DNA of 63,322 nucleotides, filler included, from Reclinomonas americana ATCC 50394 (GCA_048213135.1; 18 parts of 18 records of this genome joined end to end with filler, not necessarily neighbours in it), one strand, 5' to 3'; numbered from the whole stretch's first letter, positions 16,062 to 17,499 are shown. A program made the numbers and translations. Notes: generated by a model not told the origin, from the letters alone.

Positions 16062-16407
16062 TTACCACGAGAAGGTCACACCTGTGCGGGGGAAGGGGGA
16101 GGAAGTGAGAGGGCGGAGGGAGGGAGGGAGGTGGGTGGGAGAGGGAGAGGTGGGACGTACCGACGCCAGCGTTGGCGCCCTCGGCCTGGTTCCAGCCAGC
16201 GTTGGCGCCGACGGACACGGTGTCGCCTGTGAGGCAGGGGAAGGGATTGGCGAAGGAGGTGAGTGTATAACGAAGGAGGTGGATGTGAGAGAGAGGCCAT
16301 GTACAGAGAACTCAACAGCGAGCTCAACGAGAAAGAGGTGAGACACGCAGGTCAAGGCGTCGGGAAAGGAAGGACAGAGAAGGAGACATAAGTAGTCACA
16401 GGACAAC

Positions 16408-16465
<58 letters not shown>

Positions 16466-17499
16466 GACGAGACGACGAACGAACGAACGTAACGACGAAC
16501 GAACGAACGAACGAAGAGAAGAGAGAGACGACGACGACGACGAGTAGTAGAGGGAAGGAGGAGAGAGAGAGAGAGNNNNNNNNNNNNNNNNNNNNNNNNN
16601 NNNNNNNNNNNNNNNNNNNTTAATTAATTAANNNNNNNNNNNNNNNNNNNNNNNNNNNNNNNNNNNNNNNNNNNNTACCGGTACGTACGGTACGTTACGT
16701 ACGAGGGTAAACGGTTTCGGCCTTAAAGCCCTTGGAATTGGCCAAGTGGAGTTTGCGAGAACGGATTCGAGAGATGAGAGAGAGAGAGAGAGAGACGACA
16801 TGCACAGAGAACTCAAACTGCGAGCAACAACGGGAATGAGAATGAGACACGCAGATCAAGGTGTCGGGGAAAGGGAGGACAGGATAAGAGAACTGCAGTG
16901 GCGAGGACAGAGAAGGAGACAGAAGAAGGATCCAGGGTTGGGGAAGAGTGGATTGGAGAAGAGTACACAACAGCGAGCGGATTGACACAACGAGACGAGA
17001 TACAAGATCAAAGGTCAGCGGGCTGGGGAAACTGAGGACAGGAGGATAAGAGAACTGCAGTGGATCACGGAGCGAGAGGAGACAGAAGAAGGATCGAGGG
17101 TTGGGGGAGAAAGAGGACTTGCAAAGAGGACTCAAACTGCGAGCGCAACGATAAAGAGATTGAGACACGCAGATCAAGGCGTCGGGGAAAGGGAAGCCAG
17201 GAGGATGAGAAAACCGCAGTGGATCACGGAGGAGCATAAGAAGGGACACGAGTAGAGAACTCAACAGCGAGCAACAACGAGAATGAGACTGAGACGCGCA
17301 TTAAGGGTTTGGGAATGAGAGGACAGGCAGATAGTGAGTGGCGATTGCAACGAAAGAGGACGAGGAACACGGATGATTACAGCACATGTGACTCACCATT
17401 GCCGACCTGAGTGCTGACGCCAGCATCGGCGTTGACGCCAAAGCCATTCTGGCTGCTGGCGGTCTCATTCACACCCCAGTTGTACTGCGCGCCGCTCAT
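16062..17499 (-). CDS. Small Gly-rich four-beta-strand protein, 62 aa (YadA-anchor-like or attacin-like)
   Basis: Exons 17499-17397, 16226-16161 and 16081-16062 have canonical GTGAGT/GTACGT donors and CAG acceptors, all phase 1. Product: MSGAQYNWGVNETASSQNGFGVNADAGVSTQVGNGDTVSVGANAGWNQAEGANAGVGVTFSW*. Intron 1 crosses a linker, so exons may be hidden. Confidence 0.7.
16800..17330 (+). repeat. Intronic degenerate repeats in the small beta-protein gene
   Basis: Recurring GAGAACTCAA..GCGAGC..., GAGACACGCAGATCAAGG and GGATAAGAGAACTGCAGTGG; related sequence at 16300-16400 on the other side of the linker. Confidence 0.75.

Follow-up and report, generated by a model that had tools for sequence, protein, structure and literature searches.

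This study concerns a small gene on the minus strand of a stretch of 63,322 nucleotides, filler included, from Reclinomonas americana ATCC 50394 (GCA_048213135.1), the whole of which is called the window below. The gene occupies positions 16062-17499 and encodes a protein of 62 residues, hereafter the microprotein. The window consists of contigs of ~1-9 kb connected by 17 joins of the form N...TTAATTAATTAA...N, whose central part is a linker with stops in all six frames (examples lie at 12036-12047, 15032-15043, 16620-16631 and 20731-20742). Gene models that span joins, as do intron 1 of the microprotein gene and the neighbouring Omp85 gene, hinge on correct scaffolding. The genes of the window are eukaryotic in style, with many introns, and the non-coding DNA is GA/CT-rich.

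Structure and coding potential of the gene

Exon 1 (17397-17499, minus strand) starts with an ATG at 17497-17499 that has an A at -3, comprises 34 codons and one base, and ends at the donor GTGAGT. Intron 1 (16227-17396, minus), of ~1170 nt as assembled, finishes in an acceptor made of a pyrimidine tract and CAG, and is followed by exon 2 (16161-16226, minus), which is 66 nt long, in phase 1 at both ends, and bordered by the donor GTACGT. Intron 2 (16082-16160, minus; 79 nt) has an acceptor of the same kind, a pyrimidine tract and CAG, and leads into exon 3 (16062-16081, minus), which supplies the last 5 1/3 codons and the stop TAA (16062-16064). The frame thus amounts to 103 + 66 + 20 = 189 nt, that is, 62 codons and a stop, with both junctions in phase 1 and Gly encoded at both split codons. 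A first-pass annotation of the window had assembled a 62-residue product from three phase-1-linked exons, and the exon translations joined by the two junction glycines reproduce its string exactly; its remark that no single open reading frame (ORF) contains the product is confirmed by the ORF listing of the window. Both introns are canonical (GT..AG), their splice sites are of the same style as those of the intron at ~15758-15808 in the neighbouring plus-strand gene, and the exons stand out as islands of balanced composition amid CT-rich minus-strand DNA.

Intron 1 contains the gap at 16576-16675, where the first-pass annotation had placed it, together with a (GA)26 tract and a tandem repeat with a period of ~159 nt. 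To the right of the gap the repeat covers 16788-17231 (2.8 copies, 70% matches); an extra copy at 16296-16420, to the left of the gap, aligns with the right-side copies. Because copies lie on both sides of the gap, the contig carrying exon 1 and the contig carrying exons 2 and 3 share the array, in agreement with the scaffolded order, and the array probably explains the assembly break in intron 1.

Codon usage in nine ORFs of the window with Pfam support (3711 codons in all) served as the reference for assessing coding potential. The three-exon frame has a coding log-odds of +0.63 log2 units per codon, against -0.38 and -0.17 for the other two frames; windows inside the reference genes give 0.29 +/- 0.21 log2 units per codon, and only 0.03% of random 62-codon windows drawn from the scaffold attain 0.63. 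Synonymous choice was also measured by an index similar to the codon adaptation index and independent of amino-acid composition; its value of 0.79 equals that of the best reference gene and is higher than in any of 5000 uniform synonymous recodings of the frame (maximum 0.74). A tblastn search of the window with the spliced product recovered its own exons only, the next match having an E-value of 0.093, and revealed no paralogues there.

An orthologue of identical length

We searched 1.84 billion cluster representatives exhaustively with HMMER, using as query the read-through translation of exon 1 (40 residues), and obtained seven proteins at E <= 0.001. Among them is a metagenome protein, P0009 (E 2.3e-04), of exactly 62 residues. 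The spliced product aligns with it from residues 1-62 to residues 1-62 without a gap, with 33 of 62 positions identical (blastp E 4e-22). The conserved residues include Y6, N7, W8, N11, E12, T13, G35, D36, N47, Q48, E50, G51, G55, G57, T59 and F60. Identity in the exon-1 part is 20/34; in the part made of the junction codons and exons 2 and 3, which lay outside the search query, it is 13/28. The score of this latter part, 79, compares with a shuffle mean of -15.6 (z 7.7) and was reached by none of 100000 shuffles, and when gaps and offsets were allowed the score was reached by none of 5000. Exon 2 is the counterpart of P0009 residues 35-57, both split-codon glycines are kept in P0009, and the Met-Ser start is common to the two proteins. 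P0009 comes from assembled environmental data, whose source marks it as full length; it forms a one-member cluster there, found on three contigs of <=1134 nt. Since start, end and length are identical in P0009, the exon boundaries are settled and the protein stands alone. The contrary case, in which GC-rich islands produced the frame by chance or the three exons close a longer protein, could draw on the fact that the frame is open for ~120 codons upstream of the ATG. The in-frame translation of that region is, however, low-complexity CT-repeat sequence, the codon tests favour the proposed frame, P0009 agrees with the spliced product in length, in its first two residues and in where its C-terminus falls, and a search for longer forms of P0009 found none; we consider this case extremely improbable. 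Comparative evidence of this kind demonstrates that the three exons constitute a genuine spliced gene that stands alone and belongs to a rare, conserved family, with P0009 as the one other member so far.

The remaining six proteins from the HMMER search, which outscored P0009, are 521-5213 residues long and match in 5-13 stretches each; they were dismissed as repeat-driven similarity. Five of the six (P0003 was left out) were scanned and proved to be large proteins of bacteria with repeats or several domains, and P0009 has no match to the one of the six compared with it, P0004 (E 5.9). A word-index protein search returned nothing with the exon-1 read-through and, with P0009, only P0009 itself at near lengths and nothing among longer proteins. 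Scanning metagenomes with P0009 gave a single tblastn pass (L001) among at least 595 pattern matches. This bacterial contig (1-3558, plus strand) holds an ORF, open over at least 1185 residues, that combines ankyrin-like and subtilase (Peptidase_S8) segments; its C-terminal region of ~300 residues ends in an aromatic residue and is followed by a tRNA-like sequence. One stretch of this region is 45% identical to P0009 residues 18-61, with an E-value that is valid only within the candidate set; the lead rests on strand-like composition and was dismissed as a relative. The same scans found no relative in 18 viral or 556 prokaryote pattern matches. A degenerate motif matched 10 viral loci, never past 27 residues, and a motif for the C-terminal block matched none in viral contigs; in prokaryotes, degenerate motif scanning gave 35 loci, two of which were inspected and rejected, L025 being a low-complexity ORF rich in Ala, Gly and Gln and L030 a repeat protein. 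With P0009 as query, Pfam gave no family at E <= 10 and NCBIfam none, PHROGs nothing beyond phrog_12572 (E 0.033), and PDB sequences a best E of 0.37; the exon-1 read-through of the window gene matched no Pfam family at E <= 1. The HMMER filters discard most matches above E ~0.1. In the sequence-family libraries searched, the microprotein family did not turn up and would be new; nor did a conserved bare four-strand stave that is the whole product of a eukaryotic gene turn up among the papers listed by literature searches on this question.

Composition and predicted fold

The microprotein is composed mainly of Gly (12), Ala (9), Asn (8), Val (8) and Ser (6) and has no Lys, Arg, Pro or Cys. P0009 likewise lacks these four residues, and Gly and Asn together make up about one third of both proteins. 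The net charge of the microprotein is -4; P0009 has eight acidic residues and one His. One unbroken two-residue rhythm runs through the whole chain of both proteins: hydrophobic or aromatic residues occupy 20 of 22 even strand positions in the microprotein and 17 of 22 in P0009, against 0 of 26 and 1 of 26 odd positions, respectively. On the Kyte-Doolittle scale, 11 of 20000 shuffles of the microprotein and 147 of 20000 shuffles of P0009 attain the even-odd difference; on an interface scale it is not significant (4944 and 4359 of 20000). Ala, Val, Leu and aromatic residues would thereby be gathered on one face of the sheet and Gly, Asn, Ser, Thr, Gln and Asp on the opposite face, while aromatic residues are found at strand ends (positions 6, 8, 20, 46, 60 and 62).

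AlphaFold2 predicts P0009, from a three-row alignment, to be a four-strand antiparallel meander with a predicted local distance difference test score (pLDDT) of 87.7 and a predicted template-modelling score of 0.62. The modelled strands (residues 3-15, 19-31, 37-47 and 51-61) are 11-13 residues long and connected by three short turns. The four strands of alternating pattern described in the first-pass annotation are thus upheld by the model of P0009 and by the dyad pattern of both proteins. Its other structural observations stand as well, namely the lack of Lys and Arg in the composition, the lack of a signal-peptide-like N-terminus and the aromatic C-terminal residue (..TFSW).

We compared the P0009 model with known structures. 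Foldseek found nothing in the PDB at E <= 0.001, and the geometrically best rows were Hia anchors, with probability 0.96, template-modelling score (TM) 0.55 and root-mean-square deviation (rmsd) 3.7-3.8. The ten best structural neighbours are, in order of score, the gasdermin B pore (8.2; rmsd 1.9 over 57 residues), the RCD-1 pore (7.9), the GSDME pore (7.7), the Trichoplax gasdermin pore (7.2), C5b8 (7.2), the PlyB pore (6.5), a methyltransferase (6.5), the AtaA anchor (6.5), FhaC (6.4) and Hia (6.3). Judged by entry titles, membrane-inserted barrels or pores account for nine of these ten and for 23 of the best 50.

Comparison with known systems

The trimeric autotransporter anchors of YadA, Hia and AtaA, three of which build a 12-strand barrel, resemble the microprotein in having four C-terminal strands, which are predicted in the microprotein, and an aromatic last residue. 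They differ in that they come with a passenger domain, a pore helix or coiled coil and a Sec signal peptide, none of which is present in the 62-residue protein; with strand 1 starting at residue 3 in a chain of this length, there is no room for a coiled coil, a passenger domain or a signal peptide. The anchors are moreover bacterial, trimeric autotransporter adhesins being called exclusively bacterial in PMC3417366, whereas the microprotein gene is eukaryotic and spliced. The first-pass annotation had considered a relationship to either YadA anchors or attacins; neither membership is borne out, since P0009 has no Pfam family at E <= 10, YadA_anchor and Attacin_C included. In gasdermins, RCD-1 and the MACPF/pleurotolysin proteins, pairs of inserted hairpins are part of proteins of 200-500 residues in which a globular domain drives oligomerisation. 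The match of P0009 to gasdermin and MACPF structures covers the inserted part only, at 5-6% identity, and the microprotein consists of strands alone.

The mitochondrial barrels VDAC, Tom40, Sam50 and Mdm10 are likewise made in the cytosol and have no presequence and amphipathic strands, as described in a survey of such proteins (PMC3045335), and their last strand, like that of the microprotein, has Gly together with alternating hydrophobic residues. They are, in contrast, single chains of many strands (19 in VDAC and Tom40, according to published abstracts), whereas four are predicted in the microprotein. Attacin and gloverin are secreted insect antibacterial proteins. Their Gly-rich, beta-type composition is similar, and their Atlas feature (language-model) scores are 0.90-0.91, with 115-133 of 256 features shared, which is rated typical of chance hits or distant relatives. 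The clusters listed for them, however, are of 137-181 residues.

Uncharacterised giant-virus proteins of 68-97 residues with a predicted four-strand fold, from Barrevirus, Terrestrivirus, Acanthamoeba polyphaga mimivirus and Moumouvirus, form the top rows of a Foldseek search of BFVD (E 3.6e-03 to 2.6e-02, probability 0.99-1.00, TM 0.51-0.66, 13-22% identity). The three Atlas clusters nearest to P0009 are also Nucleocytoviricota proteins, of 70-72 residues (0.92-0.93). Scans of viral contigs with P0009 and two conserved motifs gave no relative. From the likeness of the models, the microprotein may belong to a wider family of protists and giant viruses.

Proposed assembly and destination of the microprotein

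A lone four-strand sheet with two free edges and a wholly hydrophobic face would be unstable as a monomer in water, so that copies must be expected to associate, either edge to edge in a closed barrel or face to face in a sandwich or stack. We tentatively propose, at somewhat less than an even chance, that the microprotein forms an oligomeric multi-chain beta-barrel, most likely in the mitochondrial outer membrane and by way of TOM and SAM50; structural models and analogy lead us there. The stave of such a barrel would be the entire 62-residue protein. Copies would pair edge to edge, with the face of Ala, Val, Leu and aromatic residues in the lipid and that of Gly, Asn, Ser, Thr and Asp inside. 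The protein would be synthesised in the cytosol, without a signal peptide, and inserted by an Omp85-type machine. As eukaryotic barrels are made in the cytosol and inserted by machines of this type, the mitochondrial outer membrane would be the most likely destination, reached through TOM and then SAM50, and the C-terminal strand (..G-x-G-Hy-T-F-x-aromatic) could serve as beta-signal. There is a precedent: a four-strand YadA anchor expressed in yeast is reported to go to mitochondria only, where it is assembled into trimers in a manner that requires Tob55 and Mas37 but neither Tom20 nor Tom70 (PMC3093317). The survey of mitochondrial barrels gives PoxGhyxHyxHy as the refined beta-signal and notes that multimeric barrels might escape its own search (PMC3045335). 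Residues 53-60 of the microprotein fit this motif if Val is allowed as Hy (large hydrophobic), and a fit in the last 12 residues occurs in 164 of 20000 shuffles of the microprotein.

The same two-faced sheet could instead assemble outside membranes, either as a small beta-sandwich held by its Ala/Val/aromatic faces or as a silk- or amyloid-like cytosolic cross-beta stack, with Gly face on Gly face and Ala face on Ala face, in a structural, storage or stress role. Both proteins lack a detectable internal repeat, unlike curli-type proteins; half-against-half local scores are reached by 894 of 3000 shuffles of the microprotein and 794 of 3000 of P0009. The strands are 11-13 residues long and have hydrophobic stripes with aromatic residues at either end, and a conserved terminal aromatic residue follows alternating hydrophobic ones. 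Such features are typical of membrane strands. Because of them, and because most of the best structural neighbours are units inserted in membranes, we favour the barrel and regard the non-membrane sheet as possible though rather unlikely. The likeness to pores and to Gly-rich peptides would also suit an effector, comparable to the hairpins of gasdermin and MACPF proteins or to attacin and gloverin, that is released and damages a foreign or target membrane. The microprotein has, however, neither a signal peptide nor another export feature, and no globular domain that would keep the strands soluble before insertion; P0009 matches neither Attacin_C nor Gloverin in Pfam at E <= 10, its Atlas scores are reached by 4-10 of 100 shuffled proteins, and the codon choice would read as that of a well-expressed gene of housekeeping type. 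An effector therefore seems to us quite improbable.

Several points weigh against the mitochondrial barrel. Two of the five AlphaFold2 models of P0009, all resting on the same three rows, are poor (46.5 and 40.9), and the exon-1 fragment of the window gene alone is predicted to be unfolded (pLDDT 61.4, no secondary structure), so that the structural reading of the window protein rests on the orthologue and the shared pattern. The microprotein fits the beta-signal only with Val as Hy, and P0009 fails it, since its polar position is occupied by Phe; PMC3045335 gives putative Mdm10 sequences with this residue there as exceptions. The targeting element of mitochondrial barrels is described as a hydrophobic beta-hairpin (PMC4931251), and among the VDAC hairpins that this source reports in plant cells, one with a mean hydropathy of 2.1 failed in targeting while one of 3.4 was targeted; the lipid-side means of the hairpins here are 2.1-2.7. 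An Ala/Val face opposite a face of 40% Gly suits sheet-on-sheet packing equally well. Lastly, no natural multi-chain barrel of such a kind was among the papers that literature searches for one listed. With these points included, a mitochondrial mini-barrel would still be the best single mechanism and is, by model and analogy, plausible.

If the proposal were true, the microprotein would add a fifth kind to the barrel proteins of mitochondria, and would extend to them a class thought to be restricted to bacteria; confirmed mitochondrial beta-barrel families numbered only four as of 2011, by the count of PMC3045335. A barrel fragment of four strands from bacteria can be assembled by mitochondria (PMC3093317), and no natural eukaryotic substrate of the sort was among the papers that our literature searches listed. 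The most far-reaching form of the proposal is that the microprotein makes up the first multi-chain beta-barrel found naturally in a eukaryotic organelle, as a bare stave made in the cytosol, imported by TOM and assembled by SAM50, and that giant viruses may encode related staves; in our view this is unlikely. The protein is a candidate for synthesis, being 62 residues long, conserved and free of a soluble domain that would complicate assays. Even if it forms no barrel, it illustrates that ORF-based annotation misses spliced microprotein genes of a conserved family, and a Lys/Arg-free, perfectly two-faced sheet under selection bears on minimal beta-sheet assembly and design.

Neighbouring genes and other features of the window

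The microprotein gene is convergent with the 3' part of an Omp85/SAM50-like gene on the plus strand (13584-15899), the predicted last exon of which is 15809-15899. Its exon at 13584-14066 matches Pfam Omp85 with an E of 9e-08 and 32.4 bits (cut-off 24), and that at 14142-14462 with an E of 9.8e-05 and 22.4 bits, just below the cut-off. Among PDB sequences, the Omp85 exons matched three Sam50 entries only, weakly (E 0.019-0.02), and the last two short exons, searched alone, gave no match. The spacer between the convergent stops (15900-16061) measures 162 bp if the Omp85 gene ends at the plus-strand TAA predicted at 15897-15899, close to the figure of about 160 bp in the first-pass annotation, and the 3' untranslated regions (UTRs) of both genes would be very short or overlapping. 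We treat the adjacency to SAM50 as coincidence and give it no weight.

On the other side, ~1.5 kb of unique sequence (17500-18976) separates the ATG of the microprotein gene from a divergent plus-strand gene, whose ATG lies at 18977 and which includes a short-chain dehydrogenase exon (19590-20219); the intervening DNA presumably comprises the 5' UTR and a shared promoter. Within it, a long inverted repeat at 17745-17912 consists of a GA-rich tract and, after it, a TC-rich one. An Rfam search of 15088-19000 gave 12 matches, plant microRNA precursors and the Hsp83 3' UTR among them, all below gathering scores and all on the inverted repeat; they probably reflect low-complexity pairing and not an RNA gene.

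Two long ORFs on the minus strand (20735-22204 and 26879-28183) carry right-handed beta-helix repeats (Pfam Beta_helix, E 1e-14 and 1e-05); they are rich in Gly, Ala, Asn, Val and Ser like the microprotein and are unrelated to it by tblastn. Farther along the window, 41360-43941 (plus strand) and 49335-55468 (minus strand) hold five long, intron-poor ORFs with WD40 repeats and one with TPR repeats, a cluster that suggests that repeat-domain genes have expanded locally.

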